From Gnetum montanum (lineage: Eukaryota; Plantae; Gnetophyta): DNA of 64,000 nucleotides. The notes under the pieces were generated by a model. The model worked only from the letters and a program-made list of their open reading frames with translations, did not search any database and had not been told where the DNA came from. A program made the position numbers and the translations under genes. This document shows positions 6,671-47,049 of the stretch, piece after piece. Location: contig MNCI01001500.1 of NCBI GenBank assembly GCA_015680685.1, positions 1-64,000 on the forward strand, read 5' to 3'. The stretch's first letter is position 1. Each line of letters begins with the position of its first letter.

Positions 6671-6693
6671 GGAGATCCTTAAGGGGGAAAGGA

Positions 6694-10286: not shown

Positions 10287-12199
10287 TTGGCCCCATCTTT
10301 GTTGATGTTTTGAGGATTGACCTAGAAGACATCAACAAAGAATGTGAAATATTGCTACAGATTCATCACCAATGCTTCTCTCTCCACACTTGATTTTGTA
10401 GTTTTCGAATCATGCTAGGAAGTGCTCATGATGATGAAGTAAGATTAGGATGGGAATAATGACTTGAAGTAAGGAATTGGCTATATTGGTTATTCAGAAA
10501 TGGTTAAAAAAGCTAACAGAGAATTCCAAATGTTTTGACATCATGGTTATGACATAATGACATGTTTACTAGTTAATAAAGGCTTCATCCTTCATGCTTG
10601 ATTGACTAGTTACATAGGCTTAGACTTGGAGAAATCAATGCTTTATCATAGTCTTTTTTTACTGAGCCATTTGTTACTTGTTAGGATAATTTCACCTCTT
10701 CTCTTTCTTGAAATCTCTCCATTTTTATTTTTTGGGAGTAAAAACTTCTTTGGAATTCAATGCCAAGGACAAATTTTTATTATCTCCCTGAAGAAACCAT
10801 GTGTAGACTTGGTGAACTAAATTTAGTGCAGCATTGTATAAGAGATGTCACAAGACCATGATGCATGAATGTCAAACATAGGATTTTAGCATTAGCAAGG
10901 TAAGGCTAAGATGGTTATAGGGTTATGACTATGAAAGGGTAGTGGGAGTGATATGGGATAAGCACCATTAGCATGATCAAATGAGCTAATTGAATATCAT
11001 ATATTGAGGTCATGTGATAACTTACTGCTATAATGAGTCACACTTATATGATGAATTTGAACTCATCCTATAAACACAACTCCTAGAGAATAAGAAAGTA
11101 GATCAAAGAATATAGAGATTATAAGATATTACTTGATACAACAAGAAAATATAGAACATCATGAGTTAAAATTGACAAAACTTAAGGACTTTGTATCTTG
11201 CACTATAGATTTTTACAAAGTTTGTAGTGTTTTGAAATGTCAAATAGAGAGAAGATCATGCATGCTAGCTTGTCACAGGCTATAAGATCCATTAATGTTA
11301 CATAGTCATTCAAATATACAAATAAAGACCAACAACACTAAAAGTAAACATATCTTGGGGATATTGAGGTTACATAGATACAATAAAGAACATGCGAAGG
11401 TTGTAGTGTTCCCTTTTAGGGCTTTGGTGATATCTTGGGGATATTGAGGTTTAAGTGAGAAACTTAGTTTTCAATATTTTCTTCTCATAATTGTCAATTG
11501 AAATGGAAAATTCTACTAGGGAATCTTCTATGATGGTTATGGCCTCTAGGTTAAGTGTAATAAGGGAATTTCAAGGTGTTAAGGCTACATGGTTGAAAGG
11601 CTTCCAGGCTTAGAGGTTTAAGTGTTCAAGGTTAATTGATTAAACAACATCACCCAAGGATATTCTTAGACTCAAATGTAAGTCAAATTGTTCCTATCCT
11701 TTCAAAGCTTAAACCTTCATATCATCATAAGCACATTAAATGACATTTGTATGATATAATTTTTAAACAATATCAAAAGAAGAAGAAAAAGGTAAAATAA
11801 GATCACAACAAGGCAAACTATGGGAAAATAAGATCAATTAAGCTTAAAGAAGTTAGGATATGTTCCAAATGATTTAAAAATAAGGTCAAGAAATGTTAAA
11901 ATGAGGTAAAATCACATAATAAATGATATTAAGTATTTATTTTCATTATTATGTTGTCAAAAAGGTCAAACTTTTATAAAAAGAACATCAATGAGTACAA
12001 TAATGATCTTTTGATGTAAAATAAATCAAATTGAGCACATATGACCTATTTTTAGCATGTTTGACCTAGTTGGACAACATGAAATTATTATGGTCTAGCT
12101 TGACAACATATTTGATAGTCTTATACAACATGTAAACTACAATTTTAGGTTTTCCAGCATGTGTATGGTAATTTCATTATCAATTTCATTTCCACATAG

Positions 12200-13100
12200 T
12201 TTCTGACACTTGGTACTTTGGGTAGGGAGCTGTGGAACCCACATGCCAAAATAATTAACGTAGTATGGTAGTGTATTGACTCTAGATATTGGATCCATAG
12301 CATAATTATGTTAATTTAATTATTAATTTTGCTACCCTAGCATATTTGGCACTTGGTATCTTGGATCTAGAGTTGGTAGGTCCCACCTATTAGCTTGTTT
12401 AAATAGATTGTAAGCATTTTGAGCTTTCAAAGTTAATTTCACACTAAAAGGTATAGTATGGGATTAATTCCATAGTTAATTTCACTCCCACAACATTTTT
12501 GACTTTTGGATATTCTTCTAGGCTATGTGGGACCAACTTGATAGTGTATTTGAGCAAGATGGGTAATGTATTAGACCATAAGAATCATTTTTTCAAGAGA
12601 AAGCAACATATGAACTTAATTTGATTTCCTATCTTATTACCTTGGTAAGTTTACCCTTTGGTATTTTTCTTCATGGTCTATGGGGCCCACATATCATCAC
12701 TATTGACCATATGAGCATTGTTTTGGACTAGGAAAACTCAATTTCTCATAGGATGTTAGTGTGTAAACTTAATTTCATTAATCCAACGTTTTTGACATTT
12801 GGTATTTTTTTTCATGACTTGTGGGCCCACATGTTAGTGTATTTAAGCACATGGACATTGTTTTAGGCTAGAAAAACCAATTTTCCACCAAGAGTAAGCA
12901 TGTGAAGTTAATTTTAATTTTAATTTCAATTGCACAACATGTTTGAGGTAGACTTGAACTACTTGGGCTATTAGGCATAGTGTCTTTGAGTTAGAGCATG
13001 AAGTTTTCTATGAAATATTAGCATGTAACATCTATTTCATTCTCAATTTCATAGCCATAGTGTATTTAACCTATTGCATTGGTAATTTCACACCAACAAC
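12200..13100. repeat. ~147-bp-period array with GTGGGNCCCAC palindrome
   Basis: tgtggaacccac 12231, ggtaggtcccac 12375, gtgggaccaac 12527, atggggcccac 12680, gtgggcccac 12821. Flanks align (cacttggta..., agcatgtgaa.ttaatttcatt). Confidence 0.8.
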
Positions 13101-13260
13101 ATATTTGGGACAAGCTTAAATTATAAAACTGAATTTCAACATTGTGTTCAAGAAAATTTGATTTTTTTTATCTCCTATGCTTAGTGTGTTAGAGAAAACT
13201 TGGAAATTTTAAACTTCTCTTTGTAGCAATTAAAGGTATAACACCTAAGATCTAGCAATC

Positions 13261-14760
13261 ATGGTAGGTAAGAATGGATTGTTGAGCAAGGATGTAGTCA
13301 TGGAGGAGGCAGAGAATAATGTGATGATTATTTTATCCAAGATTCAAAAACTATTTGCAAGGGAGGAATTTACATCCACAACATGCAAATATCCATTTTC
13401 TTTAAACTATTGTTTTTTTTGACTTGGCTCTATTGTTTTTCTAGGCCCATGTATGGTAGAATTCTTGGTTTTTAAGTATGTAGAATCAACGTTATAGATA
13501 TTTTGATAGTAACTAGAATGAAATCTATCTTTTTGGCTTTTTGTGACAAATATTTCAGCTTTTTCTAAGCCACATGTGTAGTGTTTTAGCATGTTTTGAT
13601 TTTTCTTTAGCATTCATTGTTCTTTTTGTAGCCACATTGACAGGGTTGATAGGGTTTTGCCCACTCATGGTTAGTATTATTAACTTCTATGAATGGTTAG
13701 TACAGTGCGTTACAGTTATCAAACATGAATGTATTTTGACATGGATTTTTAGTTAATGTGCATTAAATTAGGAATTTTTTGGTTAATTTTTGATGAATTC
13801 GGGCCTTTTCTACATTTTTATGTGCAATGTCTTAGTCATTTTTGGCTTGTTTGATCATTTTTACCATATCTATGGCCTATAATAATTTTTAAATATTTTT
13901 TCTACCCCAAGGATCAATGTTTTACCACATTTCCTATGTGAATGGAGGCTCTCAAGATTTTTTCTAGCCAATTTTCATAGTGTTTTAGTGCCTAGTACTT
14001 GGGATGGGTATTGTCAATTTTTTCTTAACTCTGTGATTAGTGTGTTTGATCTTTGGCTCTAACAGATGAATGTATTTGACCTTCCCTTCCTAGGAATGCA
14101 ATGTTTTTAGCACTTCTAATTTTTTTGTGGGGATGAAAGGGCAGCATACATATTTCTAAAACCATGAAATCATAGCATTTTTTACTTCTTCTTCCTTCAT
14201 TATTAGCATTTTTAATTTTCCCAATGCTTAAATTAGTATTATTGGGATCTTTGACCTTCTTAGGCCTTATTTTTTTTGGTTATGATTATATGTTTTGGTA
14301 AAAATCCAATTTTATGTCAACTGTTTATTAAAATGCTTACCTATGCTTTGTAGGTCAAAAATTTGAAAAAATGTGTAACCATGTCTTATAAACTATCAAA
14401 TTATGTTTTTCACATCATTTCTTGAATAAAATATCAAATTTAATTTTTTTATATCGAGTATTTGACAAAATTTCAAATCCACATAATGTTGATTCATGAT
14501 ATTTCAAGTTTGGCCTAAGTGTAATCCTAGTTACGTATGCAAGCTTGGCTACTATGTATTCATGTTTTACTAATTAAATGTTCTTAATTTAGTGTTCTAG
14601 TTTGGCCATAATATTAATATTTATTCTAATGATTTATTATTCTACTTGTTTATAGGCTCCTAGTGATGAATATGATGGCTCTAGCAACACTTCTTCTTGT
14701 TGTTTTATGGCTTTTTCTAAGGTGCTAATGGTGATGATGTGTTATCATATTGGTTGTGTT
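13261..14760 (+). pseudogene. Shortened antisense accessory gene of element A (about 3 exon-like blocks)
   Basis: Purine-rich block 13261-13385, then tgtag|GTC 14354-14534|gtatgc, then tatag|GCTCCTAGTGAT from 14656, which resembles the last exon of B (tatag|ATACCAAGTGAT). Same position relative to array and gag-PR as in B. Confidence 0.45.
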
Positions 14761-15329
14761 ATTGTTTTTGGCTACTTCCTACACTAATGAATTTAAAGAT
14801 TGTTATCATCTATTTTTTTTATACTATGTAACTATGACTAGGGGCTATGTTTGGCTTCATGATGTTGCATTTTGACTTTAGTTCAAAACTACTCCTTGGA
14901 TACAGATTTTTAGTTTTTTTATGTTTTATATTTTTCTACATTTTATGTTTTATTTAAATATGATATTTAAGTTGCATATTATAATGAGAAGGCTACAAAG
15001 TAAAATTCAATAATGTGATGTAATAAAATGAAAAATGTAAAACAAGCCATAACTATTAAAGTAAAACCTATAAATAACACAACAAAGTAAATAGGTCATA
15101 ACATATATACATGGAAAAGAAAGAGGAGGCCACATCCAATAGTTTTAGGCCTTGGGAGACCATGGTATCACCAATTTTAGGCCTTGGTAGTCCATGGATA
15201 CATCTATCAAACAAGCATGGAATAATTTTAAAATAGAATACAAAAAAAAAATGTTGAAACATGGTATAAGACTACAAAAGTAAACAAATGATCATTAACA
15301 AAGGAAGGGATAAGGTATTGACTATGAAT

Positions 15330-18300
15330 TTTTTATTTAATTTTCAAGAGATCAAGAAACCACTTTTGTATGATTGTATGTTCACCATTGTTATTTTTTA
15401 ATATGGCAAGCAATAGGTGTTGTTGTTGGTCATATAATGTTTTAGACTTGGCATTGTTAATATTGTTGTTATTTTTGTTGGTCCCAACTTGAATGTAAAA
15501 AATTTCATCTTGAAACTCCACCTCCAATCATTATTTAATGTTGACATTGTTAAAAGATGGTAAAAATATGTTATTTCCATGAATCACAATTTCACCATCC
15601 TCATATGATAAGTGAATTTATTGATGTATAGGAGATGATATTTTTTGAAGCTTAGATAACCATGATCATTCCAAGATCAAGTTAAATCTAGGTGTTTATT
15701 TAGCCACTAGAAAATTGGTGGATGTGGGAAATTATTCCCCAGCTACAAATTTGAAGAAGCTAGAACCTCATACGACTATCTACAACCTATTAAATGACTT
15801 GAGCATAGAAATAGAGGTCTTCTATATGTTTGTCGTTAGGCCTAATCATTCAATAATGGTAAAAAGTATTATGTTGATTGCTACCTGATAATTCACATGA
15901 ACATGATGAATATTATTCTTTCCAACATGTATGGTAATGAGGAGTAAATATCACTTCTCTATTTCATGGATCAATCTTCACTTCTCTATCACTAAAGGTA
16001 AGTGTGGTTTGATGCTTATTTTCTCTAAGTAGAGTTTGATCAATAATGAAGTGAATGGATTCCTTCTTAACAAGCATGTCTCTGCTTATGGGAATAGAAG
16101 TCAACATTTGAACTAATGTGTCTTTATAAGTAGGAGAAGTTATAACTAGATTGTATATGTTTAGTGATGTGTTCTTTTGTTTTAGGGATCATTTGTCTTG
16201 TTCCATTACCATGCAAAAATTCCTTTTGTTGGTGTGTGATCTATTGACTTTGGTAGTCTTAATTTCCTCTATTCTTCATAGAATTTTTAGCTCATGTGTT
16301 TGATGTGTGTTTCTTGGACACCTTGCTCATACCTAGTTTGTGACTCCCTCTTATTTGATTGGTTGATGTAGTCTGAGAAATGGACTTCATAGGTAGGGCT
16401 AATATGCATGTAGGCTTCAGTGGGTTAGCTTCTTTAGCATATGACCTAGTGATAGATTGTTCTTGTCACTTTTATGGCAATGATTCCTTGTTAATCAATG
16501 ATGATAGTGTTGAATTATTAGCCATAATGGATGAGCATTAGTCACATTTTGTTTATAGTTTTCTTGTGGATGGTGAAGACTAATAGAAAATGGTTTCATA
16601 GCTTTAAAAGGATTAATAATGATTTTCTTAGGTCATAATGTTATTTTCATTAAAGGCAAAACATGTATAAAAAAGGGCTCTTTGAAATCTTGGGGTGATG
16701 GTACTCATATAACAAATGGCATTTTATGCTTTAGGTTATAAGACCAAGTGCTAACTCATGGTACCTTGATGACAAAGGGTTCTCTAGGAGGACTAGATTG
16801 AGTAGATGTTATGAATGAGGCTATGATATATGTGTTATTTTTTTTATTTGAAGCATTTGATTTGTTTAACACCAAATCTCTATGATCAATAATTTTCTAA
16901 AGATCATCTTTAAGGGTTATGTAGAAATTGGTATCCTAACTAGCTAGTTGATGATAATGGGAAAACCTGTTAAGCTTGAAGTATTGTGGAAGTTTTGGAT
17001 CGTCTTTGGTTGCGACTGTGGGATCTCTAACTATCTCACAAAGATGATCATCTCTTACAAGCTTCCTTAGATAGTTTCTTCTATTAAATACAATTTTTTA
17101 AGCAACTATTCTAGGAGCTTAGAAGGTTTCATAAGCAACTTAGTGTACTTAGACTTATACTTGTGCTTCAAGTTTGGTCTTGGCTAGTTGAAATCATATG
17201 AAGTAGATGGTTGAGATCAGTTAGAAGATATCTTACGTGGAAGAGACTTTCATCCTTTTGTTTGTTTTGTTTCTTTTGCTACTACAATCATGGTTACTTA
17301 TTCTGCTTGGTTTTATCCTTATCCCTCATCATGTGCTACTTCTTATAAACTATATAGGCCAAATCATTGCTACCTTTAGCAACCTTCTAAATGTTCTTAA
17401 TTTGTGAAAAGGATTAGCTCAATGATTGGGATTCTATTTAATATAACTTTAACTTGATAAAATTGTTGATAGCTCATTTAAATATGGCTAGTAGATGCAT
17501 TTCAAACATGGCCTTTGGAATCTCATTAAGTATTATGTTCCATCTCTGAATAAAATTTTGGACAAATTCAAGTGGCCCATGCATCACTTTTATAAGTTGT
17601 TCTAATGTCATATCAAGCTTCAAGTTGTCTTTGAAGTGGTTTATAAATTGGTTTACCAAGTCTTCAAGGGAGAAGATAAAACTTTTGGGTAATGTACAAT
17701 ACTATTATATGGCTTTTTCTATTATAAACGTAGGAAAGATACACAATACAGTATGAGGCTAGGCCTATAGCAAGAGGTATTCTAAATAGAAGGTGATGAG
17801 GTGTGCATTGGGATCTCCTTAATCAATGTACTTGGTGAAGTGGGGAATTTGAATCCCTACAGGTAATATGATTTTAGGGATAGTTCGGATAATAGAGCAT
17901 CTTGGTAAAAGTTCATGATTTTTACCTCTTTGGTTGTATTTGATTTTAATCTTAGTAGCTCCTTAGTGGGGTTCTAGATCATTTTGAAAGCTTGATCTAG
18001 GCCTTGCAGCACTCCTACAAGTTGTGCTACCTATTAAATAGTTGGTGATTGTAAAATAGACAATGGTATAGACTATAGGGATCATGTGACTACCATTGCA
18101 AGAGGGTTAAACATGGAAAATGAGGTTGGCATAAGCACATGAGGAAAAAAGGGTATATTAGGCACAAATGTATTATGTGACACATGTGGTATTTGAGATT
18201 CCATAGAATGTCCAGTTGAAACTACAAATAGTTGTGACATGGACAAAACTAGTGAAGGTGTAGAGGTTAATATAGAAGCAAATAAAGAAGCAAGTTTAGG

Positions 18301-18770: not shown

Positions 18771-18879
18771 ATATGAGTGAAGTTCTAGTTTGAGCCCATA
18801 TAAATCATGTTTTTAGGTAATATTATTAACAAAAAAGGCATAAACAATGTAGAAAAGATGAATCAAGTATATGTGTCAT

Positions 18880-19163
18880 AGGCTTTTACAATATAGATGA
18901 GTTGTTGTAGTAGCTTGTTTAATAGTCTATTTGGATAGCTTTATTAGCTAGCTTTTTTATTAGCTTATTTGGATAGCTTGTTTGGGTATCAATCATCATC
19001 TATTTTAGCTCCTTCATCACCATATAGAGAAGCATTTTAGTTCACTATCAACACAAGATGCTTTTAGAAGTCGTGGTAGTGGCAAACATTCAATGGACAA
19101 AGAGCTTATGGAGAAATTGCATACCCTAGAACCCCCTACATTTCTAGATGAGGAGGATCCTAC
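18880..19163 (+). pseudogene. Chromovirus (Tekay-like) gag N-terminal fragment, interrupted by the LTR of B
   Basis: ELMEKLHTLEPPTFLDEEDPT matches the Tekay gag motif FxxxxPPxFxGxxDP and stops exactly at the LTR start at 19164. Confidence 0.55.
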
Positions 19164-19411
19164 TATAGCACTTGAAAAGTTTGATTGCTAGAAAAACCAA
19201 AAATCCTAGGTAGAGTAGTTTTAACCTTGGATCTAAAGGGCATTCAAGAAAAAGGATCTAAGATACCTTGGATGGCATTGTCAATCATCCAAGGACTTAG
19301 GAAGTGTTAACAGGGTAAAAAATTCAAAATAAAACTTATAAATCTACTTTAAAAAATGCAAAGAAATAAACTATGAATAAATTTGCACAAAAAATGAATT
19401 GTAAACTTTAT

Positions 19412-20269
19412 TGATGATGAACCATGATATTGCATTCGTGATATCGAGTACACAATATCGCATCCACGATATCGGGTATGAGATATCGGAGCCTACCATG
19501 CGATGTTGGATACCTGATATTGGGACCTACCTCCTTGCCTATAAATAAGAGGCATGCACACTTGGTTTTGTAATTAGATAGTTAGTCCCTTAGCCAAAAT
19601 CTTGCCCTTTCTCCCCTCCAGAGCTAGAATTATTTCTGTGTGCCCACAGTAGGAGTCATCAAGTGAACGGATCTTTGTTCGAGCATTCTGTACCTAAGCA
19701 CACTTTGTGTACGGAAATAAAGACAAACTTTATGATAAACCTTGCAACATCCAAAATAGATTAATTAGTGTTAATTGATGTTATTAAATGATTTCTTAGT
19801 TAATTAATGATTCTCTCTTACCCTACAACTCTCCTAAGTAAGAACACACAGTACGATCACTTCGAGCATGTGTGTAACACTTGGTAACCTAGTAACGATT
19901 AGCGTTTGGTAATCCTAGTAGTGTTGCGCTAGTTCAGGATGTGTACAACAAGTGAGAATGGATATGGTGTTAGGATTAGTTTAAATCTTAGTTAATTAGT
20001 AGTTAAGTTAAATTAGTTACTTAGTTATCTTTCTCTCCTCCCTTATTAGCAGCAGGACATAAAAACATAAAAGCTATAAAAATCATATGCATCAAGCTTA
20101 CTTAACCATACAATCGTGACATACAAGTAAGTTTGGGAAGACAGAAATCAACCAACCCATCCTTATTCCACAAGGGTGCATAAGCACTTAGTCCTTGGAA
20201 TTCGATCGGATTCTGCATGAAATGCTCGTATTCGTATGGTTGAGAGTAGGGGTACCTTGCCACTCATCA
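19412..20269 (+). mobile_element. Athila-like solo LTR inserted in the LTR of B
   Basis: TGATGA...TCATCA termini, GATATC repeats, and TATAAATA at ~19540. Its 3' end is homologous to the reverse complement of 51526-51600. Flanks tttat/attaa are not a clean TSD. Confidence 0.8.
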
Positions 20270-22491
20270 ATTAAGAATAATAAAATTTCCACAAAAGCAG
20301 AGTTTGAATGTGTATAAAATATGTGTTTAAATGCACAAGGAGTTGCTTAGATGATGCTTGAAGCCTATTGAAGCTAGCAAGTTGTGCTTTGCAATCAAAC
20401 TCATGATCCATATGCTTCCCAACCTCAATCACCAAAACGCCTTGGGGGGTTTTTAGATTAGATCTATGATGTTGATGATAAGAGGGGTAAAGGTGTTTAG
20501 CTTTTTGAAATTTTGGCACTATGTTGGAAGTCTTGAATGTCCAGTTTTTTGTCAAAATACTCCAAGATCTTTACAAAATTCCAAATGTCTTAAGTGATCA
20601 ATGTTACAAAGCTTGTCCAGTTGAAAAAGTGTGGAACCTATCTAAAGTTTTTGAAATTTGATCTTATAAGTCTCATGGTTGTTGGTTTTTGTGCTGAAAA
20701 TTTCTTCCATGATTACTGCTAGATTGGTATAATTTGTAAGTGTGTCAGATCATAATTTCCAATGTAGTTTTCCATTTATGTCAATTCTTGATATGCCTAG
20801 GCCACCAAAACCATGTTGAATACCATAAATAGTAAAAATACTTTTCCAAGTATGCTTGCTTCATCCATCTACACTAGCCTCATGGGAACAATGTTGCAAT
20901 TGTTAGAGAACATTCAAATTGCTAAAAGAACAAAACCGCCACCACTCCAATGCTAGATTTTGTTAAAAATTACAAACTCCATAACTTCAACATTAGCTTT
21001 GTTGCATCCACACTGAAAGTTATGGGAACTACACTATCCATTTCTGGGAAAATGAAAACCCAATAACCCCAACATTGGGTTTAGGTAGTTCCAACGTAGT
21101 TGAGGCTATGACCCATGTAAAACCCACAAAAATGACAAATTTGATAGTTCCCAAGGCATTTTCAACCTTCCCAAGCCTAAATATAGACATGATATGACTT
21201 TTTCTACTTGGGAAGTGAGTCTACAATAACTTATGAGGCATTTTTCAACTCTAAAAGTTCATGTATGTGAGATTGCAACTAATGTCCTACAAACCTTAGA
21301 ATTTTTACAATGAAAATCTAGCCTCAATTGTAGGGGTGAAGGTTCCAATTCCAAAAAGGTTACAATATGCATTTTTGTGTTGGTGTTTCATTGGTCCTTC
21401 TTTATTTATGTTTGAAGAATTAACTCAAGAGACATCAATAATGAATACAAAACACCACTCTTGGTTCATCACCAATATTTCCTTTTTATGTTTGATTATA
21501 TAGTGTCGAACCATACTAAAGAGTGCTTCTGATAATGGGATAAGGTTATAGCAAGGTGTTATAGGTTGAAGGGTATCTTTGGTCACAAGGAAGTGCTCAT
21601 AAGGTTAATAATGGATTCCAAATATTGACATCATAATTATGATTATGGTAGTGACATTATAGTTAATTGATGTAATCTCCATGCTTCGTGCTTCAAAGTG
21701 TTGATTACTTAGTAATGTTTTTGGGGAATCAACAACTCACTCCAAGGTTTATTTGGTCATTAGGCTTCTTCTTTTACTTGTTTTAAGCTACTGATTTATC
21801 TTTTGATATTCATAAACCTTTTAGCTTCTTGGCAATTTGCTTTCTCATTTTTTTTGTAGGGTGAAGACTTCATTAGGTTTCATTACTAAGGCTAGGTTTG
21901 ATTTGATTTTTCTATTGAATTTGATGTGTTACATTCAATGAACTTGATGGTAGAGCATGATGAAGAAAACCTCACATGGCCATAATGCATGAGTGTTAAA
22001 CATTGATCATTATTGTTGTTTAAGGCAAGGAAGGTCATAATTTGGCTATGGGACTCGACTTAAGGAATGGTAATGGAAATGATGTGAACCAAGCACTCTT
22101 GGTATGATAGAACAAGCTTACCAAATATTGTGCATCAAGGTCATGTGATGTCTTGCTGCCATGGTGAGTTACACCTTTGTAATGACCTCAGGCTTCATCC
22201 TACAACCACAACTCCAAGAGGATAAGAAAACAGGAAAAAGAAGACATGTTACAAGAGAGTGCATAGGGCCACATGAGACAACTAGCAAACTAGGTTAACA
22301 TAATTCAACATTGTTATAACATAGAGAGATTTTTGTAATGCACATCAGATTCACAAATCTTATAGTTCATTCATTATCCAAAATAAAGAGAGAGAGAGAC
22401 ATAGAGAGAGAGCATGTGTAGGCTCTCTTGTTATTTAGTGTAGTGGCTTTTGACATCAACTATTGATTTTGTACCTCTAAGGAAGATCATG

Positions 22492-34300: not shown

Positions 34301-36269
34301 CAGTTGGATCATGTATTTGGTTTATTTTTTTCATTAATTATGTTATGACTACTTCTAGTTAGTTTTTACTTGTAAGACAATTATTATTTTATGTTATTAC
34401 TACATAGTGTAGCTTTGGTTGTTGGACTTCTATTTATTTTTGTTGTTGTTGATTAAACTCTTGTCACATTATGTGACTATGGACGTTGGTTATGGATGTT
34501 TTGGATATCATATTTATTTATTATTTTTAAAATTTTTAATTTTTTTATACATTTTAGCATTTTTAGTTTTATGCATCTCATGTGTTTCATGTTTTGTTCA
34601 TGTTATGAGGCTACGTTAGGCTACAGTGGTTGAATCATGTAGTTATAAGGCAATACTCAACAAAGTTAAAATAAAAATTAACTAGGATAAAATGTAAACT
34701 AAAGTGTTAATGAAGATGAAACATAATAAATCATAAAAGGTGTTGTCAGTTTTAGACCATGACGAGCCTTTGTGTTTTACTAATTTTAGGCTATGGCAGG
34801 CCAAGACATTTTGCCAAGTTTAGACCATGGTGGGCCATTGTGTTTTGCTAGTTTTAGGCCTTAGCAGGCCTATATGTTAAAATAAAAATTTTTATAAGTT
34901 TTATATTTTAAAATATTTATAGATTTTTTGAGTTTTAAAATTTTTATGATACTTTCAGGTTTTACTTTTCAAAAATGATAGGGCATAAAAATGTAAAATG
35001 TAAATAAAAGTAAATTATAGGTTACATGCTAAATAAGGCTAAACCATGGTAAAATAAAGTAATGAAAAAATGATACATGCAAACAAATTTTAAATTATGA
35101 TAATAAAAAAAAGAGTAGGCCATATGGTTATGGTAATAGGCAAAGTGAATAGCAAACATATGTTCAATCATGCAAGTGTTTCCTAATCTTTAAAAGATTA
35201 GGAAAGTTGTAGGGTCTACATTATTTCTCATTTCTTTCACTAACCATGTCAAAAGGGGAGCTCTTCCCATGGTGCATTCATGGTTCCGTTATTGTCAGTT
35301 TCAGCATCTTCCACTCTATTGGGCCTCTAGACTTCATCATTGATAGTAGGAGTTTGTAACATCTAAAAATCTCAATTACTGGAAAACTAAAAATTTTAGT
35401 GAAATAGCTTTAACCCTAGATCCCAAGGACCTCCAAAAAATAAGCCTCAAGGTGCCCTAGATGGCTTATTAGATTACCCAAGGACTTAGAAAATGTAAAA
35501 TAGGGGTAGGAAAACAAGAAAAATGTAATACATATCTAGAAAATAAAAGCATGGAATAGGAAAAAAAATATGATCTAACTTGCACACAAAGAAAACTATA
35601 AAATTTATTTCAATAAAAATAATGAGGATCAAGAAATATGTACAAGGGGTGCATAAGGATGCAAGGAGGGGTTCACTTTGATGAGTGCTTAGAATCTATT
35701 GAAGTAGATAGCCTTGGATGCCACCATCATCTTCATGATTTGAATGCTCCACAACTCTTGAAACTATGAAACCTTGCTGTAATCCTCACAAAATTTGTAC
35801 CATTGGTGGTGCATGGGGTAAGATGTGTAGGGGTTTTGATCTACAAACAAGAGCCACACTAGGAATCTCAAAGCCCAAGTTGCTCAACATTGTTGCAAAA
35901 CCACACACAATCTGAAGGGGTAAAAGGGGTTACAATGGCTATGGGTTCCATGCTACAATTTTCTCTCAAAAGCCTTGTTCCTACAATTAATTTTTAAAGC
36001 TATGGGATTTAAAAATGATAGAACCTATAAATTCATGGAACCCTTTCAAGGTGCACAAGTTTGAATTATATAGGATGTATGGCCATGAATTTTGTTGCAA
36101 ATTTTCTACCTAATTGTTGACAAATTTCTATTATGTATAGGTGTTGCATGTGTCTATGTATGCTAAGTTTTGATACCTCCAAGGTACTAAAAGCATTTCA
36201 TTTACTAAAACCATTTTATGTATGGGAATTTTATCTATGTTGGGTCTTCCAATTACAATGCTTGGCCTG

Positions 36270-36535
36270 CAAGAGCCACATTGAGGTGTATGGGTAATAC
36301 TAGGATATAACACCCACGTTGGGGGGTATAACACCCACGTAGGAGCTATAGGAGCCAAGCTATACCCACACTAGAGCAATGCTAGATCCATGCTATAGTA
36401 ATGTTGGATCCATACTAGAGAAATGTTAGGGGTGCAATAGCCATGTTGGACCCATGCTAGAGTAATGCTAGGGGGTAGTAGTTATGCTAGGGGGATAATA
36501 GTTATACCTCCCTAATGCTAGGCATGGGTGATGTT
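36270..36535. repeat. Short tandem repeats in the LTR of C
   Basis: tataacacccacgt(t/a)gg twice and several atgctagag/atgctagggg units. Confidence 0.7.
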
Positions 36536-36836
36536 ACATATCCCCCCCACCACAGGGGTTTCTACCATAGCAAAGATTATACCCCCTACAAAACCCATCA
36601 AAATGCCAATTTTGATAGTCCAAAAGACATTTTTAACTCCTCTAAGTCCAAATATGGACATAATATAACTTTCTTCACTTATGGGTTGAGACTTTGACCA
36701 CTAATGAGGCATTTTTTTCATCCCCAAAAGATAAATTATGTTAAATTGCATTTCTTGGATTATAATCTTCACATTTTATAATGATGTTTTTAGCCTCAAA
36801 CTTCATGGGTTCAAGGTTACAATGCAAAAAGGCTAC

Positions 36837-38154
36837 TGTATTAACCTAAATCGTCGGTGTAAGGCTAGAAGGGAAACAGACACTGAGAGATCATCGGGTA
36901 TGCACAGCTAACCCTACCTTCACTTGAGGGCAAGCTATAAAAGGGAATGAAGGCAGAGTGTCTTGGATGGTCTGCACAAAAATCAACCAAGGACTTCCCT
37001 GAGCGTAAGCTACAACTAGCGTTGGGGTTATTGTAAACAAGATAAACAAGATGTAAACAGAATGAAAACAGTGACACAAAATGTAAACAGAGCGTACTGA
37101 ATTATAAATAAAGTGTAAAAAAAGCTATATTGTAAAAAAAATGTAAATATAACTGAACAATGTAAATGGAAGGCAATGAACTATATTGTATTGTTTAATA
37201 AAAAAGGTATGCACCGGTCAAAGTGTAGCTGCACGTGTGGATGGCAGTTCAAGCACTAAGCCTCGGGATGATGTCTAAAGTGATGTGATGAATGTGAGAA
37301 ATACTTGGATACTAATAGTTTGGTGTGCCAAGCACCAAAGGATTATAGGTTCTGTACTTTCTCAGAATTGCCAATGTCTCCAATTGCCCCCCAATTTTTT
37401 TTGCCTCCTAGTTTATGTGAATTGATAGGGTATTTATAGGGTTGGGCTAGGCTCAGGCACGAAATCTAAGAATGAAGTCAATGGCTATGAGATGAGAGGA
37501 AAGTAGATCTAGGGACATGTGTCCCATGGATAGTTGGCACGAGTTGGATGTGTGTTGGCAAGCTACATTCTTGACCAGTTACATTGCATTTTACAATTTA
37601 TGGGTTATTCAAGCCCATGAAAGTACATTTAATTTAGACCATGAGGGCTTGACATGCCCTCAAATGGGGATTTATAATGAAATGTACAACAAGAAAAATT
37701 TGACTGCTCGGCATGACTTGTAGTGTGACCTGTAGTATGACCTCCAAAACTTGCAATTTTCAGTTGAAATCTGGAATTTCTGAAGGCTGGGACCCATAGT
37801 TATCAATAGTGGACCCTGAGGATGACTTGCACCCTTGAAATCAAGTCATTTGGCTTAGTTTTGGGACTCTAAAAGTTGGTGACGCTGATCCTTACGCTGT
37901 GCAGCATCTAAAAAAGTGACCCCAGTGTACTTAGCCAAAACCAAATATTTTGAACCTGAAAATTTTGGTTCTAGATGCTGGAAGTTGGTGCAATCGCTTG
38001 TGAGCCCCAAGGGAACCTTGCTTGTTGAATCATGGGCCGTTAGGGGCTGTTTCGGAGGCCTCCAAGTTTGGTCACACTATACTCATGTTGGGCAGCAGCA
38101 TGACTTAGCTTGATTCTTGTCTAAAAGTGCTAGGCCAAAATTAGTGGTGTTTCA
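36837..38154 (-). repeat. 3' LTR of Y (1318 bp)
   Basis: Direct repeat of 43890-45349. About 12% mismatch in the first 200 bp counted by eye, mostly transitions. Confidence 0.95.
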
Positions 38155-38168
38155 TTGGCCCCTCTTTG
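38155..38168 (-). promoter_or_regulatory. Polypurine tract of Y
   Basis: The minus strand reads CAAAGAGGGGCCAA directly before the LTR TGAAACAC. Confidence 0.85.
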
Positions 38169-39324
38169 TTGACAACTAGAGGAATCTACCTAAGAGGCAT
38201 CGACAAAGAAATGCAAAACACCATGAGCAACAAAGCATCAAACATTAACTGTCGATCCTTAGGTGGGTGTCATCGCACCATTTTCAAAAGTACATGGGAT
38301 TGAGGGGATGTGGTTCAAGATGCAATGGATTGTAACTAAGGGTAGCTAGGAATTGATCAAGGGTGAAAATTGTTGTTGGAATTGTGAGAGAGGAATGCTC
38401 TCACATGAACAAGTTATGTCATTGGTCCTTGTCCAAGCCAGTGTTCAGTAGACTCAGAACCAAGACATAGGAGGTGTGTTCTTTGGAGAAACGGGACTCT
38501 TATAGAGTATTTGCGAGGCCCGTTGTAAACAGCCAAATCCATGTGATGATGTGTAACATGGTCTCTTTGAGACATGGTGTAACTTTTTTTCAAGACAATT
38601 ACCTTCTCGCCTGGGGCTTGTATGAGGATGGCCAATAGTCTTTTTTTTATGATGTCAACAAGGTCATGAAGACCTTTTCTGTGCATTTTTCTTTTTGACC
38701 TTTTTTTATTCTCTTTTTCTTTTCTTGTTTTCTTTTTTTTTTTGTCTTTTCCTTCTTATTTTATTGTTCTTTTTGAAAGAGCTTGCTTTTTGTGTTGTGC
38801 TTGTGTATGAGCACTTGCATTTTGCATCATGTACTAATTGTGTTTTGCGTTGCGACTGCTTAGGGAGTTATAGTGTGTAACAATGTATCAAGAGTTTTGA
38901 GGTGAGCAGAATCTATCAAGGGGATATAATTGGATAGGATAAGGGAGCATGATGGGGAATAGGGAATGTATCAGGAGTCAGGAATGTACTTATGAATGAA
39001 TTGATTAACCCAGTTGCGTGCGTCAGGAAAAATGTGATACCTTGTTGTCATGATGAAGTGCATCTATGCACAAATGCCTCAGAAGTGTCATCCTGCAAAC
39101 ACAACTCCAAGAAGACAAGAAAACCACAAATGAAACAGTCAGCTAAACACTTTAAATAAGGAGATGGATTCATTGCATGCAATTTTCAAAGCAAATAGAA
39201 TCTTGAACAGCATCAGTTTCATTAGGGCCCATGAGATGAATCATGCAACAAGTCTTTGTGGAACATGAACAGCTAATTGTAGCGACACATCTTTTCAAGT
39301 TTTTCCTAGTCATCGATGATGTCA

Positions 39325-39645
39325 CCAGTTTAGAGTCTTAGCAGACTGTTGTGGATTAGTTTCACGTCATAACACCTTGGACGGTGCCAGTTTAGCGTCA
39401 TTGCAGATGGTGCATTGCTTGTTTATAGTCATAGTGGACTGTGAAGAGGCAAACTAGTTTATAGTCTTAGTGGACTCTGGATACTAGTTTCATGTCATGG
39501 CAGATGGATGTAGCATTTTAGTGTCATACTGGATAGAGCTCTGTGGTATCAGTTTTAAGTCATGATCTAGGACTATTCTGTGGTATCAGTTTTAAGTCAT
39601 GATGCCAGGATTGTTCTGTGCCATTTTATAGTCATAGTGGACTAA
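39325..39645. repeat. Degenerate ~30-35-bp tandem array, about 10 copies, core AGTTTwrwGTCATrg
   Basis: Cores at ~39328, 39357, 39389, 39421, 39456, 39486, 39515, 39551, 39588 and 39623. Confidence 0.8.
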
Positions 39646-39953
39646 TGCTTACCTTGCTTGTGTAAAGTGTGATGCTGCATGCATGGTCATGTTACGTGCC
39701 TACGAGATCCTGCAAAAAATCAACTAGAAAAAAAACAACATCAAGCAATACCTACCGTACATAGAGTTAGAATGTATGAATGAAAGAATAGCAATGCAAA
39801 AAGTGATAGTTTTAGGCCGTTCTGGGCTATATGCTAGTTTAAGGCCTTTTCGGGCCATGTGTTTTTGTATTTTTATGTTTTTATATTTGATGTTTTTCAA
39901 AAGAAATGTGTAAACTAAGTTGACGAATGTGTAAACAAAGCAAAATTCGTGAT

Positions 39954-42900
39954 CTAAGTGAGTGGGAAAAATGTAAACGCATAGGCTAGTGCAATGTAAA
40001 CAAAAGTCAAAAATGCATGGCAAGTGGAGGCAAAGGGTAGGCAGGCACCCACCGCATTTTTGGCTAAGGGAAAGTCTTGGTCATGTAGTTGCCTCCTAAC
40101 TGGGCATGGATTAGGGAATGTGCAAGGCTTAGGATCCTCTGGGAAGCTGTCGACTTCAACCACTCATTCAGGTGTGTTAGCCTTAATCGTTGCATTGGTT
40201 GTCGTAGATGTACCATTAAGAAAATCTTCTTCCAAAACTTGCACCATGTCTATATCATGGATAGTCGAAGAGAAAACATTATCACCATGGATGATAACTT
40301 GACCACCTTCGTATGGAAGGTAGATTTCTTGATGGATGGGAGAGGAGATGGCCCTTAGTTGAGCTAGCCAAGACCTATCTAGAATCATGTTGAAACCTGG
40401 CATCTCCTCTATGACAGTGAAATCTGCTCTAGTGGGGAATTTCTCTCCCACTACAAAGGCTAAGTTAATTGTACCCTTGACTATGACATGTGATCCATTG
40501 AAGGATTTTAGACATGTGGTTTTGGTTGGCCTGATTTCATCTACCAGGCCTAGCTTGTCGATGACAGAGTACAGGACTACGTTCATTGCTACACCATCGT
40601 CAACATGCACTCTGCAGATGGTGCACTGCCCAACACAAATGCTAATGGATAATGGAGCTATAGTGACTTCCCCTCATTTGGGGTTAACTTTCACTGCATC
40701 ATCACGAAATATTAAGGTTGTTGAACCCAATTCTTGTGGTGTGGAAGGCAACATTGTTGCATGAATGGATGCCTCATTTGCAAGGATGTCCTCCATAAGA
40801 GGAATGGAGGCTAAGACTTGGGCCAATGCTTGGCAGTGAGCAGGTGAGGTCCTGACCATGTCATACAAACTAATCGTTGTGTTCTTCTATTTTAGCGCTT
40901 GTTTTACTTGGGCTAGTGCAGCTATGAAATCCTTGTCATTAGCCATTGTATTGGCTTTGACTTCTTCCATGAAGCTTGAGAGACAGACCTCTCGGGAGGG
41001 GGACTTAGGCTTGGTTTGCTTGGGGGTAGGGGCTCCAGTGTTCAGTTGTTGTTTGCTAGTTATGGCCTTTGCTTCGGCCATGGGAGTTGCGAGGTGCTCA
41101 TTCATCCTCTGGTGTTCCCATTTGGTGGGCTTACCTAGGTTGTTAGTGGGGTCAACCCTTGAAGGAGGAGGGATTGAGATGTTGCCCAGTATTGGGCTTC
41201 AGGTAGGTGAGGGGCCATCACGTTGTGGCACCTTGATGACAAAAGGTTGCTTAGCAGTTTGTGTTGTTGCGTCATGCTAGTTTAATGTCTTAGCAAATGA
41301 ATCATGCCAATTTAACATCTTAACGGATGAGCTGTGCCAGTTTAATATCTTAGTAGATGAACATTGTGGAGCCTTGACCACAAAGGATGTTGTGGATGCC
41401 TGGGGTGGCACCTTGATAACAAAGGGAGGCCTCTTTTTTGTGGGTGGGGGAATCCTTGCCTTGCTGGGAGGCACATGGATCACAAAAGGATTTTTCACAG
41501 GTTTGGGTTTGCCACCTATGTTAATTGAGTTTATGACATAGGAGGCATCGTCTATGTTGGATTGACTTGCCATGTCAATCACTAGTTGACCTTGTTCTAT
41601 CATTCCCTGCAGGTCATCTTGCAAGGCACGACAGTTGTCTGTACTGTGACCAACCATTTGATGGTAATGACAGTATTGGTCCAATTTAAAATGTTGTGGT
41701 ACTGGGGGCTCATTTGGTACTGCTAAGGTGGGGTTCCTTAGTAGCTTGCAGTACTTATCATGTTTTTGGCGGGTAATCTCTGACACGTGTTTGTGTTGGA
41801 TTTTCCCGGATTTCAAGAGTTTCTCCAATAGTTTAGAGGGTTACATCGGTAATGGTGTATACTTTGAGCAATCCTTGCACTGAAAGTTGGGCTTTGGAGT
41901 GGCCCCTACTAATGTAGGTGAGTTGGCACCAAAGTTAATAGCTTTGTTAGCTGGGGCTTTAGGTTGCTTAGCTATTGAGCCCCATTTGGTTGCTTTTGTG
42001 ATTGTAGCTATTGTTGCCTTAGTTGTGTTTTGCTTGCGAGTATGTTGGTTTTTGTAGGCCACATAAGTTGGGTTATTACTTGATTGTGCTGCCTCTTCTA
42101 TGTCTTTAATTTGTACAAATTCCTAACTCAAAGTATGGGGTTTTAGATAATAGAGCTTTGATTTAATGAAGTCATTTATGGTTGCCTTAAGGATGGTAAG
42201 TAGATACGTTTTAGGAATAGGTTCATAAAGTTCATTCAGGGCAATGCTCCATCTTTGGATAAATTTCTATGCTGGCTCTAAAGGCGCTTGTTTAATTTGA
42301 ATCAAGCTATCTAACGTGGCTTTAGGTTTTAGATTGTATTTGAAATGAGTGACAAACTGGTGTAAAAAATCTTCCAAAGAAGATATAGAGCTACGGGGTA
42401 AGGCTCGGTACCAGTCTAAGGATCTTCCTATTAAGGACATAGCAAACATATGCAAAATTACATGGGGCCATGCCTGAACAAAAATACTTTCAGTTCGGAA
42501 TGTCACTAGGTGGATATTTGGGTCTCCCTCTCCATTGTACTTGGTTAGCTAAGGTAATGAGACTCCCTTTGGCAAGGTTAAGGGTGGAACTGAGGGATCA
42601 ATTGGGTCATCTTGATAGAAATCTAGTACTTTGACTTCCTCATTATTCAAAGTTTTAAGGCGTTTTAATTCCTTTGCCAAGGAGTGTATCATTTTTTGTG
42701 TGTCTACCCATTCTTGGGCGATAGGCAAACCAATGGATTGAGTGAATTGTGGATGATAATGATTTAATTGTTGCATTGTTTGTGAAAAGAGAGGTTGTTG
42801 GGATAACATTTGTTGTGGTGGAATGGTATTTGGGACTGAGACCACCGGTGGAACCCACTGCCCAACCACAGGTTGTGAGGTAACATCCTAAATGTGTTGG

Positions 42901-43561
42901 GTTGGAATAATCAATGGTGTTCCATGGATGTGGAAGCTGGTATGACTGATGACATTCCAATTACTTGAGTTCGAAAGATTGACCCTGCATTAGTTTGGGG
43001 AGGGAGTTGTTGGGACTGTACTTGTTGAGGAATGATGGAAGTGGACTCATCAGAATGAAAATTATTGGGTACAGAGAAGATAGGAATGGAAGTAGATACC
43101 TTTTGTCAGGAAATTGATGCTCGAGTGTTTGTGAATGAAGGAGGAAGCACAGTTTCTTCCAAGAAAGGGTGGAATAATGGGTTTGTGTAGGCATGGGGAC
43201 TAACAGTATGGTAGGAATCTCCATGTTTAGATTAGGTTGCAAAATCATCTTCCTCATCTTGAGGCTCTATTGGCAGTAGTTGTAAGGCTTGACTTCTAAC
43301 CATAAGAAGCTGGGATATGAGTTTATGATGGTGTTTAGACAATGAGATTATATCAAATGCTGAAGGGATGAACTCACGACCTCCTTTGTGGACAAGTTCA
43401 TAGTCTCGTTTCACTTCCCTTTCCACACGATCGATAGGCAAGTTGGCTTGGATTTTTACACAAATGAAGTTATATTGTTCAAGGCATAGTGTGGCTCACT
43501 TTGGTTGGATTATGGTATCAAACATGTTAGAAATTGATGTAGAAGGTTGATCTGGATTCAT
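39954..43561 (-). pseudogene. gag: gag-protease polyprotein of Y (~1200 codons, several stops, one frameshift)
   Basis: Eight ORF-track pieces from 42869 to 39954 share one frame. They contain KYNGEGDPNIHL, MFAMSLIGRSLDWYRALPRSSISS, the Tat-type knuckle YCHYHQMVGHSTDNC and protease VHVDDGVAMNV...FNMILDRSWL. Confidence 0.95.
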
Positions 43562-43867
43562 ATTCACAAATTGGGTTGTGAAAGTTGATATTTGTAGAAA
43601 ATGGCTAACTTTGAAAACGAAAAAAATAAAAAATAAATAAATAAATAATAATTAAAAAGTTGACTAAATCTACCAGTATCAAGAAGATGGATAAGTGTGA
43701 AAATGCAGGGAAAAAATGCTAAGTGTGAAAACTACTAAAAATGGCCAACTCTAGTGCTACACTCGCTACACTAGAGCTTGCTATGCTCTGAGAATTTGTT
43801 ATGCTCTCTAGAACATCCAGATTTTTAACTAAGTGCTAATCAAAAATGTAAACAGAAATGGTTCATG

Positions 43868-43884
43868 CCCTCCTTCTAGCACCA
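43868..43884 (-). promoter_or_regulatory. Primer-binding site, tRNA-Asn
   Basis: The plus strand CCCTCCTTCTAGCACCA matches the plant tRNA-Asn(GTT) 3' end CCCTCCTTCTAGCGCCA (recalled) with one CpG transition, 5 nt from the LTR. Confidence 0.85.
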
Positions 43885-43889
43885 AAAAC

Positions 43890-45349
43890 TGTACTGACCT
43901 AAATCATCGGTGTAAGGCTGGAAGGGAAAAAACACCGAGAGATCATCGAGCATGCACAGCTGACCCTGCCTTCACTTGAGGGCAAGCTGGAAAAGGGAAC
44001 GAAGGTAGAGTGCCTTGGATGGTCTACATGCAAATCAACTAAGGACTTCCCTGAGCGTAAGCTATGGCTAGCGTTGGGGTTATTGTAAATGGGATAAATG
44101 GGATGTAAACAAAATTCAAACAGTGACACGAAATGTAAACAGAGCATACCAAATTATAAATAAAGTGTAAACAGAGCTATATTATAAACAAAAATGTAAA
44201 TAGAACTGAACAATGTAAATGGAAGGAAATGAACTGTACTGTATTATTTAATAAAAAAGGTATGCAGTAGTCAAAGTGTAGCTACACGTGTGGATGGTAG
44301 GTCAAGCACTAAGCCCCAGGATGATTTCTGAAGTGATGTGATGAATGTGAGAAATGCTTGGATGCCAATAGTCAAGTGTGCCAAGCACCCAAGGATTATA
44401 GGTTCTGCACTTTCTCAGAATTACCAATGTCTCCAATTGCCCCCCAATTTTTTTTGCCTCCTAGTTTATGTGAATTGAAAGGGTATTTATAGGGTTGGGC
44501 CGGGCTCGGGCACGAAATCGAAGAATGGAATCAACGGCTGTGAGATGAGAGGAAAGCAGATCTAGGGACATGTGTCCCATGGATAGTTGGCACGAGTTGG
44601 ATGTATGTTGGATAGTTGCATTCTTGACTAGGTTCAATGTATCTATGTTGGATAGTTGTGCACGAGTTGGATGTGTGTTAGATAGTTGCATTCTTTGACC
44701 AGGTTCAATGTATCTGTGTTGGATAGTTGTGCACAAGTTGGATGTGTGTTGGCAAGCTACATTCTTGACCAAGTACATTGCATTTTATAATTTATGGATT
44801 ATTTAAGACCATGAAAGTATATTTAATTTAGACCATGATGGCTTGACAAGCCCTCAAATGGGGATTTATAATGAAATGTATAACAAGATAAATTTGACTG
44901 CCCAGCGTGACCTGTAGTGTGACCTGCAGTATGACCTCCAAAACTTGCAATTTTGAGCTGAAATATGGAATTTCTAAAGGCTAGGACCCATAGTTATCAA
45001 TAGTGGAACCTGAGGATGACTTGCACCCTTGAAATCAAGTCATTTTATCTTAGTTTTGGGGCTCTAAAAGTTGGTGACGCTGATCCTTACATTGTGCAGC
45101 ATCTAAAAAAGTAACCCCAGCATACTTAGCCAAAACCAAATATTTTGAACCTAAAACTTTTGATTTTGGATGCTGGAAGTTGGTGCAGTTGCTTTTGTGC
45201 CCCAAGGGAACCTTGCCTATTGAATCATGGGCCATCAGGGGCTATTTCATAGGCCTCCAAGTTTGTTCATGTTGTACTCATGTTGGGCAGCAACATGACT
45301 TAGCTTGATTCTTCTCTAAAAGTGCTAGGCCAAAATTAGTGGTGTTTCA
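43890..45349 (-). repeat. 5' LTR of Y (1460 bp), with two extra ~70-bp units at 44590-44750
   Basis: Direct repeat of 36837-38154; the length difference is 142 bp. Confidence 0.95.
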
Positions 45350-47049
45350 ACTACAACATTAGTTTTTTATGGTGTTTCATCAACCCCTCTTTTTTGGTAT
45401 CTTGAAGATTGACTTGAGAGGCACTAACAAAGAATGNATTCTTCATTGGCCATTCAGCTTCTTGGCAATTTACTTCCCCACTTTTTTGGGGGTAAAACCT
45501 TTATTGGGTTTCTTTGTCAAGGATGATCTGATTGTGGTTTTCAATCAAATGAGATGTATTATGCTTAATGGACTTAATGGAGGAGCATGATGAAGGGATG
45601 TCATATGGAAATAATGCACAAGTGTTAGACATTGATCATTAATGCTTAGGGTAAGGAAGGTCATTATCATGCTACAAGATTAGGTTCAAGGAGACGGTAA
45701 TAGGGTGAGATGAACAAGCACTCTTGGTATAGCAAGACAAACTCATTGAATCTTACACATTGAGGTCACATGGTGACTTACTGCCATGATGATTTGTACC
45801 TTCATGATGACTTCCAAGATTCATCCTACAAGCACAACTCCAAGAGGACTAGAAAACCAAGCAAAGAAATCATGTTATTACAATATGATGCATAGGGCTA
45901 CATGAGACATCCAAAAAACCAAGCCACAATAGTTTACCATCATTACAGCATAGGGAAATCTATGTGATGTACATGATATTTACAAAGTTTTGTAGTTCAT
46001 TCATTATGCCAAACAAGGAGAGAGAGATAGAGCATGCAAGATCACTTGTTATAGATCATCAAAGTCATCAACATTAGTCATTTGTTGCAACTTGTCAATA
46101 ATGATAAACAACACTACAAGAAAACATGTGAGTGTTAGACATAATCAAGGCTATGTGATGGATTTAATGTTGCATTATAAGAGTTTGATGAAGTTATGAG
46201 TAAGCTTAATTCTTGGTGAGGGACTTGGTTCCATGTGATTTCTTCTCACCATTGTGGTCTAGATGGGAATTTCGACTAAGGGTCCCTCTTTGATGTTTCT
46301 AGCTTTGAGGTCTATGGTCATTAGGCTACCTTAGGGTGTTATGGCTACATAGTAGACTGGTTTTATGCTTAAGGTTTTATGCACATAAGGTCAACTTGGT
46401 CTAACAACATCACAAAAGGGATTTATTTAGGTTTTAAGACTAGTCAAGTTTACTGTCTCATCCTCTTAGCTTCATCTTGCATGAAAACATAAGCACATCA
46501 AGTGGAACCTGTTTAATAAAATTGTTAAATAATGTAAAAATACATTAATAATAATGCTTATTGAGCCAAAAAAACACATTAACTTAAAGGACAAATGAGT
46601 TTCAAAGATGGTCAACAAACATTATAATAGGTGGGTTAGGGCAAATAGGGTGTAATATAAGGGCCAAATGATGTATGATAGGGTCAAATGAAGGCCAAAT
46701 GATAGTCAAAACCATATAAAATGGTGTTAAATAGCATCAATTAACACTATGTTGATGTCAAATGATGGCAATTAATGTAAAATCAAGTCAACCAAGGTTT
46801 AAGCAAGGCCAATTTTAGGCCTTAGTAGGCCATGTTGCTAATTTAAGGCCTTGGTAGGTCATGTTAGGAAGCTTATTTAGCTAGGCAAGGTTACTATGAG
46901 GCAAAACCAAGGTGAGACTTGGCAAAACAAGGTAAAATAAAGTGTTAACACAGTAAAGACAAGAAAAGATTAAGTAAAAATAGAATAAAATAGGGCAAAC
47001 TAGGTGACACAAGGTAAAATATTATTAAATTTAATATATTTTTAATAAT

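Follow-up and report, generated by a model that had tools for sequence, protein, structure and literature searches.

RLG_Sabrina_SA and RLG_WHAM of the Triticeae, with RLG_Wilma as partner, are high-copy gypsy long terminal repeat (LTR) retrotransposons that keep GAG and protease without reverse transcriptase (RT) and integrase, and are described as 'semi-autonomous'; they are reported to have persisted for tens of millions of years with varying internal cassettes, and LTR exchange by template switching has been proposed for them (PMC9744471). RLG_Quinta, which goes with RLG_Cereba, is described as a pol-less derivative of single origin that kept GAG over 28-35 million years and experienced inter-lineage recombination (PMC11302176). 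TR-GAG elements combine LTRs, a primer site, a purine tract and GAG, without RT, RNase H (RH) and integrase (PMC4350172). Here we describe a locus of Gnetum montanum (GenBank assembly GCA_015680685.1, contig MNCI01001500.1, positions 1 to 64,000; this whole 64,000-nucleotide stretch is referred to as the window) in which two decayed Ty3/gypsy elements, A and C, share the same 3.1-kb deletion of pol relative to a third element, B. A and C likely descend from one deletion, the product of which was likely copied with RT and integrase provided in trans.

The resemblance to Sabrina_SA-type elements lies in the retention of gag-protease without RT or integrase, observed in A and in a younger element, D; C shows the loss of pol only. 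The joint left by the deletion also occurs in other copies, found in all four sequencing runs examined, and thus marks a multi-copy family. The homology of Sabrina_SA and WHAM to their partner is described as a few motifs, whereas A and C keep the linker between protease and RT, the 3' untranslated region (UTR) and an integrase tail; the break in A and C is readable to the base, whereas the available account of the Triticeae elements describes no breakpoint; and A and C appear to belong to the Tat clade, with its second RNase H, unlike Sabrina_SA and WHAM (PMC9744471). Quinta is reported as a member of a centromeric clade, active and with an intact open reading frame (ORF), whereas A and C are long dead (PMC11302176). 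TR-GAG elements are defined as shorter than 4 kb and devoid of protease, so that A (~12 kb) and D (8.5 kb), which both carry a protease, fall outside the definition (PMC4350172).

A shared deletion readable to the base

All four elements are oriented on the minus strand, and were compared by blastn and pairwise alignment. Relative to B, 3,130 bp are missing from A and C (B 22505-25634); the missing stretch begins just after a conserved motif where RT starts and reaches the last integrase codons. A 10728-11778 and C 45482-46540 are colinear at 62% identity, while the alignment of either one to B breaks into two parts, one 3' UTR and one pre-RT. Across the joint, A and C align without gaps, 46 of 76 positions being identical in register versus 20-25 after a shift of 1-3 nt, and in both elements 25 nt lie between the Asn codon of the pre-RT motif and the first retained integrase codon. 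The 12 nt past the joint match the integrase end of B at 10 (A) and 9 (C) positions, versus 3 and 1 for its RT continuation. Taken together, the joint motifs of A and C score 22/27 at B 22504, the top of ~3,350 positions in the pol of B (next best, 18); for the A motif alone, one other site in this pol ties at 10/12. Against B alone, a pair hidden Markov model places the breaks within tens of bases (5' break, A 25559-25638 and C 25615-25653; 3' break, A 22400-22520 and C 22462-22505), hence it is the A-C register, together with the contigs described below, that gives base-level precision. An earlier reading made from the letters alone (hereafter the sequence-only reading) had described this common 3.1-kb deletion, with about 110 pre-RT codons kept and a direct jump to the last integrase codons; coordinates and letters agree with it, and the retained stretch counts 106-109 codons.

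One base is common to both sides of the lost segment, leaving the cut ambiguous by 1 nt, and neither possible cut gives GT..AG, as that reading had also noted. These ends bear on the possibility that pol was removed by splicing and the spliced RNA reverse-transcribed. An Ogre-type intron is apparent in the elements, so their RNA likely meets the spliceosome, and an AG does occur within the lost segment, 2-3 nt from its 3' end, and a GT ~15 nt upstream of its 5' end in B. Nevertheless, the use of such nearby sites would shorten the joint by several bases compared with A, C and the contigs, and A keeps an upstream spacer that splicing would likely also have removed. Splicing is largely refuted, and we leave it a very slight probability.

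A 25-bp motif just past the joint (within 46090-46147 and 11320-11386) is the best conserved segment between A and C (21/25). It is deeply covered by contigs, the frame through the joint reads as hydrophobic, and, compared post hoc with the general branch-point and splice-site consensus, it looks like a branch point followed by a splice acceptor. The corresponding pattern after the joint of C was not counted: the regular expression was set post hoc and returns 10 hits in 37.8 kb, 2 of them here.

The joint in other copies

Seventeen runs were listed for the sequence of D, 14 of which hold part of it, and four (four organism codes, three studies) were examined. Seven of the 32 contig pieces listed for C bridge its joint by at least 31 letters on each side, at 81-88% identity; five of the seven are gap-free, and each of the four runs contributes at least one. 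These figures come from the 32 pieces listed, beyond which there are 39,925 further pieces; the listing for C also covered 15 of its 377 joints and 24 of its 3,992 loose ends. The joint of A is bridged by 2 of 32 listed pieces (10 and 3 differences), 95-98% alike apart from 15 missing letters. The latter fall in an exact 22-bp duplicate adjoining the joint in A, and may be an artefact or a private insertion of A. At this same duplicate, a loose end from 11 contigs of one run departs from A, adds 17 nt identical to B 22489-22505, which further supports the jump to the integrase end, and then enters pre-RT context that is ungapped against C (20/25) and A (16/22) when compared by eye. At A 11424, each of the four runs has 18-22 contigs with loose ends that carry a B-like linker, stop short of the joint and are therefore silent on the presence of pol.

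Since other copies bridge it in every run examined, the joint is a trait of the family. An artefact of assembly, with repeats collapsed within a gapped scaffold, might have been suspected from the position of C, on a 1.6-kb piece between two gaps (the joint being ~700 bp from the nearer one), and from the duplicate next to the joint of A. For the joint itself this explanation is refuted, with a negligible chance remaining, as the bridging contigs are independent and A and C share the joint despite differing at ~38% of sites. Contig coverage is far deeper on short motifs of the joint, acceptor-like site and UTR than on the sequence between them, a weak measure; contig depth was not taken as copy number. 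Metagenome scans with two UTR motifs returned 0 loci.

Relationships and age

Near the joint, A and C go together. They share an 18-bp gap relative to B (B 25824-25841), and over the ~70 bp past the joint they are 63% identical, B being at 38-43%, the level of shuffled sequence (34-48%). With the same register in A, C and the other copies, these features uphold the founding of a multi-copy pol-less family by one deletion, as first proposed from the letters. The grouping of A and C against pol-bearing copies, whose failure that reading would have taken as a refutation, holds for this segment and fails beyond it. Over 395 columns of the linker, 75 substitutions unite A with C, 72 A with B and 47 B with C. 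In the distal 3' UTR, C groups with B, by identity (C-B 72%, A-B 62%, A-C 59%) and by sites (119 shared by B and C, 50 by A and C); the proportion of A-C to B-C sites differs between the two regions (75/47 and 50/119; Fisher p 1e-7). Because the distal 3' UTR of C is closer to that of B than to that of A, A and C are best viewed as mosaics, and recombination explains this better than unequal rates, since the branch of A is the shortest in one part and the longest in the next. The 3' UTRs of B and C, compared with each other, show no 3-base periodicity (p 0.55) and no coding signal.

Could the same stretch have been deleted repeatedly, at a hot spot, in diverged pol-bearing lineages? The substitutions of linker and UTR do not set A and C apart from B, and the breaks measured against B alone are blurred over tens of bases, as such recurrence would allow. 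Yet the register is the same to the base in A, C and the majority of the contigs, a microhomology of only 1-2 nt offers little for a hot spot, the 18-bp gap and the post-joint segment are shared by A and C, and D, a third pol-less element, has a different deletion. We consider recurrent deletion highly unlikely.

Several observations nonetheless weigh against a single deletion followed by copying in trans. In the linker, substitutions fail to unite A with C (75 versus 72 sites). The boundary of the mosaic was chosen after inspection, and alignments at 60% identity are error-prone. Private linker changes at the three codon positions (A 9/11/12, C 28/16/13, B 19/15/25) run in the direction expected if selection had ended before the A-C split, which is suggestive only, the test for lost selection in the A and C linkers being non-significant (Fisher p 0.08-0.16). 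A full HMMER search with the linker and RT of B found no close outgroup (best single-stretch matches 34-38%), and with the nearest public proteins ~37-38% identical the 18-bp gap is unpolarized. Only part of the joints and loose ends was listed, and close pol-bearing relatives of C may exist. The gag-protease of C is not in the window, its 5' half having been lost in assembly gaps, and the selection seen on the gag-protease of A (see below) may predate the deletion. Finally, among the copies examined, none that bears the joint was seen to have an LTR pair and target-site duplication of its own, so that tandem or segmental amplification could also account for many of them.

The 59-63% identity between A and C equals that among the LTRs of the array (58-65% in this comparison), and CpG in A, B, C and their LTRs is reduced to 0.04-0.13 of expectation (0.27-0.32 in D), a loss that can be read as methylation decay. 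The age of the lineage is therefore not separable from decay, and much of the A-C divergence may have accumulated after insertion. Identities to C that range from 62% (A) to 81-88% (the bridging copies) fit an old or long-lived family. Of the sequence-only reading's long-lived lineage that later diverged, plausibility is what stands; these identities and the depletion of CpG do not establish it.

Gene content of A, C and D

A retains, in order, LTR, primer site, gag-protease, a 3.8-kb spacer, linker, joint, 3' UTR, purine tract and LTR. The LTR start motif and purine tract (10278-10310 at the boundary of A with its 3' LTR) are common to all four elements, and so is a 3' UTR motif (11064-11090) with four matches in the window versus none in 100 shuffles; decay has affected the primer sites of both A and B. 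In 11 of the 14 listed intact relatives with the RT-start motif, the protease match ends 93-111 residues before that motif (6, 65 and 529 residues in the other three). Since intact Tat proteins have the same spacing, the retained codons represent the whole protease-RT linker, which would place the spacer of A at the position of the Ogre intron. The conserved motif upstream of the linker is a putative splice acceptor region, with acceptor-like sites near 11715, 25980 and 46480, and the spacer was presumably spliced. By codon position, the gag-protease of A differs from that of D at 41/23/64% and 47/24/67% of sites; the two diverged under purifying selection, as third positions (64-67%) differ far more than second positions (23-24%).

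Of C there remain the UTR, the joint, the linker and the beginning of the spacer, a 3' half located on the piece between the N at 45437 and the N run at 47050-47146. The former marks ~360 bp of B-like sequence missing from C, and contigs have loose ends ahead of 45441; beyond the latter lies one weak 75-bp match to the spacer of B (47190-47264).

D was inserted 30 bp into the 3' LTR of C, so the gag-protease adjoining C belongs to D. It alone has its own LTR pair, with 5-bp flanks agreeing at 4 of 5 positions and an LTR Kimura two-parameter distance of 0.104. Its primer site (43867-43884) is intact and presumably matches the 3' end of tRNA-Asn. The gag-protease (40146-42830; Pfam Retrotrans_gag) spans 895 codons with nine stops and no frameshift; pol and linker are both absent, a deletion different from that of A and C. 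None of 6,111 candidates scored in a homologue search with this gag-protease.

Element B and the Tat clade

The pol of B ends at a stop (22492-22494), with a terminal motif of the kind also found at the end of intact Tat polyproteins. It shows the gypsy order RT-RH-integrase (INT) by Pfam and tblastn, with RVT_3 between RH and integrase (E 4e-7, above cut-off), and is 33-34% identical to intact Tat-type polyproteins; its best matches carry the Tat domain set at 33-38% identity. A second RNase H is the defining trait of the Tat clade. From domain order and additional RNase H, we assign B to the Tat clade of Ty3/gypsy; A and C, in both of which the second RNase H is deleted, would follow by homology to B. 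That position of the second RNase H is given for Ogre and Retand (PMC6317226) and the same order for gymnosperm and fern Tat clades (PMC13468544), and since it is thus shared, it is not diagnostic of Ogre. As here, GAG-protease and RT-RH-INT of Ogre are described as separated by a non-coding stretch, with a mean of 274 bp versus 3.8 kb in A (PMC6317226); the plant-mobile-domain ORF of Ogre was not detected here upstream of gag.

No gag or protease was found in the 9-kb spacer of B: the frame of D gave nothing better than E 4.9, and four intact polyproteins had no match there. B 34819-35141, 200-530 bp inside the 5' LTR, resembles the post-protease segments of A (score 97 versus a local-shuffle maximum of 73) and D (63 versus 42). 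As the first 500 internal bases have this resemblance, gag-protease was likely deleted from B and not lost in the gap at 29472, a moderate suggestion given that the sequence is AT-rich. B, in which gag and protease were not found, would therefore be no autonomous reference.

On the plus strand, antisense to B, decayed coding remnants occur in its spacer at 30700-32500 (Pfam NIF phosphatase E 0.04, below cut-off); by eye we take this text to resemble a plant mobile domain. Pfam returned nothing above cut-off in the spacer, and no plant mobile domain in 30401-34300 on either strand of this heavily decayed sequence.

An array with shared LTRs

The window is eukaryotic repeat DNA (G+C 35%; 4 stop-to-stop frames of at least 120 amino acids; Ns at 29472, 45437 and 47050-47146), with protein matches pointing to a plant Ty3/gypsy lineage. 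A, B and C stand head to tail over 9293-47049, alternating with single shared LTRs, L1, L2 and L3 (Table 1), which are mutually only 58-68% identical (L3 versus L2, 67% over 1,048 aligned bases, score 397 versus a shuffle maximum of 130), and the units differ in gene content. Tandem structures in which internal regions alternate with shared LTRs have been described, with internal regions 94-99% identical, whereas here gene content differs and the LTRs have diverged (PMC11899658). The array likely arose by LTR-LTR recombination or tandem insertion.

This layout invites another explanation, in which pol was lost from a single copy once it had inserted, and tandem or segmental duplication, not retrotransposition, then multiplied that copy, A and C being two units of the array. 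The alternation with single LTRs, the equal identities of A-C and L1-L2-L3 and the lack of a flanked, independent copy among those examined are what it would predict. It accords poorly with the wide spread between the bridging copies and A, both compared with C, and with the UTRs: only that of C is B-like, which means that A and C already differed at the time of array formation. The deeper coverage of joint, acceptor-like site and UTR motifs, for what this measure is worth, points the same way. We regard duplication as unlikely, and descent from one deletion with copying in trans as the better account.

Table 1. Features of the A-B-C array and of the nested element D (positions in the window)
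Feature	Position	Strand	Remarks
LTR L1, 3' LTR of A	9293..10286	-	heavily decayed; outer end approximate; resembles L2 and L3 at their ends
A polypurine tract and 3' UTR	10287..11374	-	62% to B and C
A 22-bp duplicate	11350..11371	.	exact copy of 11430-11451; adjoins joint
A retained integrase tail	11375..11386	-	deletion joint 11386/11387
A retained protease-RT linker and upstream conserved motif	11387..11735	-	~106 codons; 61-63% to B and C
A non-coding spacer	11736..15512	-	3.8 kb, between protease and linker
A decayed gag-protease	15513..17985	-	stops and frameshifts; tblastn with the frame of D (E 7e-64, 1e-43) and with intact Tat proteins
A degenerate primer-binding site	19159..19173	-	resembles site of D
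LTR L2, 5' LTR of A and 3' LTR of B	19182..21390	-	
B polypurine tract and 3' UTR	21391..22491	-	
B decayed pol (linker, RT, RH, second RNase H, integrase)	22492..25960	-	Pfam RVT_1, RT_RNaseH_2, RVT_3, rve
B spacer	25961..35350	-	single N at 29472; weak plus-strand coding remnants
LTR L3 main part, 5' LTR of B and 3' LTR of C	35372..36836	-	start approximate
D, younger nested element	36837..45349	-	LTRs 36837-38154 and 43890-45349
LTR L3 first 30 bp	45350..45379	-	separated by D insertion; colinear with start of L2
C polypurine tract and 3' UTR	45380..46132	-	72% to B over 45442-46027
C retained integrase tail	46133..46147	-	12/15 to B 22490-22504; joint 46147/46148
C retained linker, acceptor-like motif and spacer start	46148..47049	-	ends at N run

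Other repeats accompany the array. L2 contains a solo LTR of another family (19412-20269), with an inverted relative at 51526-52365 (59% identity). Another decayed element is present as two inverted copies, 52596-58097 and 58592-64000, 62% identical over 5.5 kb; two frames tested of 58500-64000 had no Pfam match. Further LTR retrotransposons have left plus-strand fragments at 49300-50080 and 5650-6700, among them an RT/RNase H end that by eye is copia-like, and a stretch resembling integrase (E 0.02). Decayed tandem repeats with periods of ~150, 180 and 190-300 bp occupy 1-430, 2370-4830, 12160-13110 and 27930-28480, the last two within the spacers of A and B.

Proposed origin and significance

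In the origin that we propose, the deletion would have arisen once, by a template jump of RT or by end-joining repair at a microhomology of 1 nt (perhaps 2 nt), and not by splicing. Its product would have kept all cis signals and gag-protease, and on that account could have served as a semi-autonomous capsid donor, while RT and integrase would have been supplied in trans by intact relatives. Co-packaging with B-like RNA would have allowed template switches, and C likely acquired its B-like distal 3' UTR from B-like partners, through later template switching or gene conversion. LTR-LTR recombination or tandem insertion would then likely have produced the head-to-tail array with single LTRs. For origin, mobilization in trans and switching alike, we reason from the precedent of the Triticeae elements and of Quinta (PMC9744471; PMC11302176).

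A bolder conception, which we hold to be distinctly unlikely, is that the Tat family was a split, two-part retrotransposon, in which elements of the A/C type, and of the D type by way of a further deletion, donated gag-protease, and B-type elements, devoid of gag-protease, donated pol; the two kinds, split at the Ogre-type intron, would complement each other in one particle, so that no complete element would be needed. The mosaic UTRs and the A-B-C array would then be footprints of co-packaging. A single copy of B cannot carry such a claim. Gag-less elements are known, namely BARE-2 (PMC4350172) and Tos17 (PMC3977881); as described there, both are copia elements of demonstrated mobility, and BARE-2 has a complete autonomous helper, whereas B is one dead copy. 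Our literature search found no description of a gag-protease-only unit joined to a pol-only unit; it also listed no paper on this family, and this second negative says little.

The pairing of gag-only and pol-only units in one LTR-sharing array is thus a lead from this locus. Moreover, A and C offer a clean example of how a pol-less gypsy family was founded, with a joint resolved to the base, which was not recoverable in a sugar beet survey of pol-less families, as reported (PMC13570524). With the joint as a marker, the family could readily be counted and dated in the related organisms whose runs hold it. Should B-type elements without gag-protease prove to be a family, and complete elements prove rare, the locus would represent a mutually dependent two-part retrotransposon, a conclusion that, if true, would matter more.

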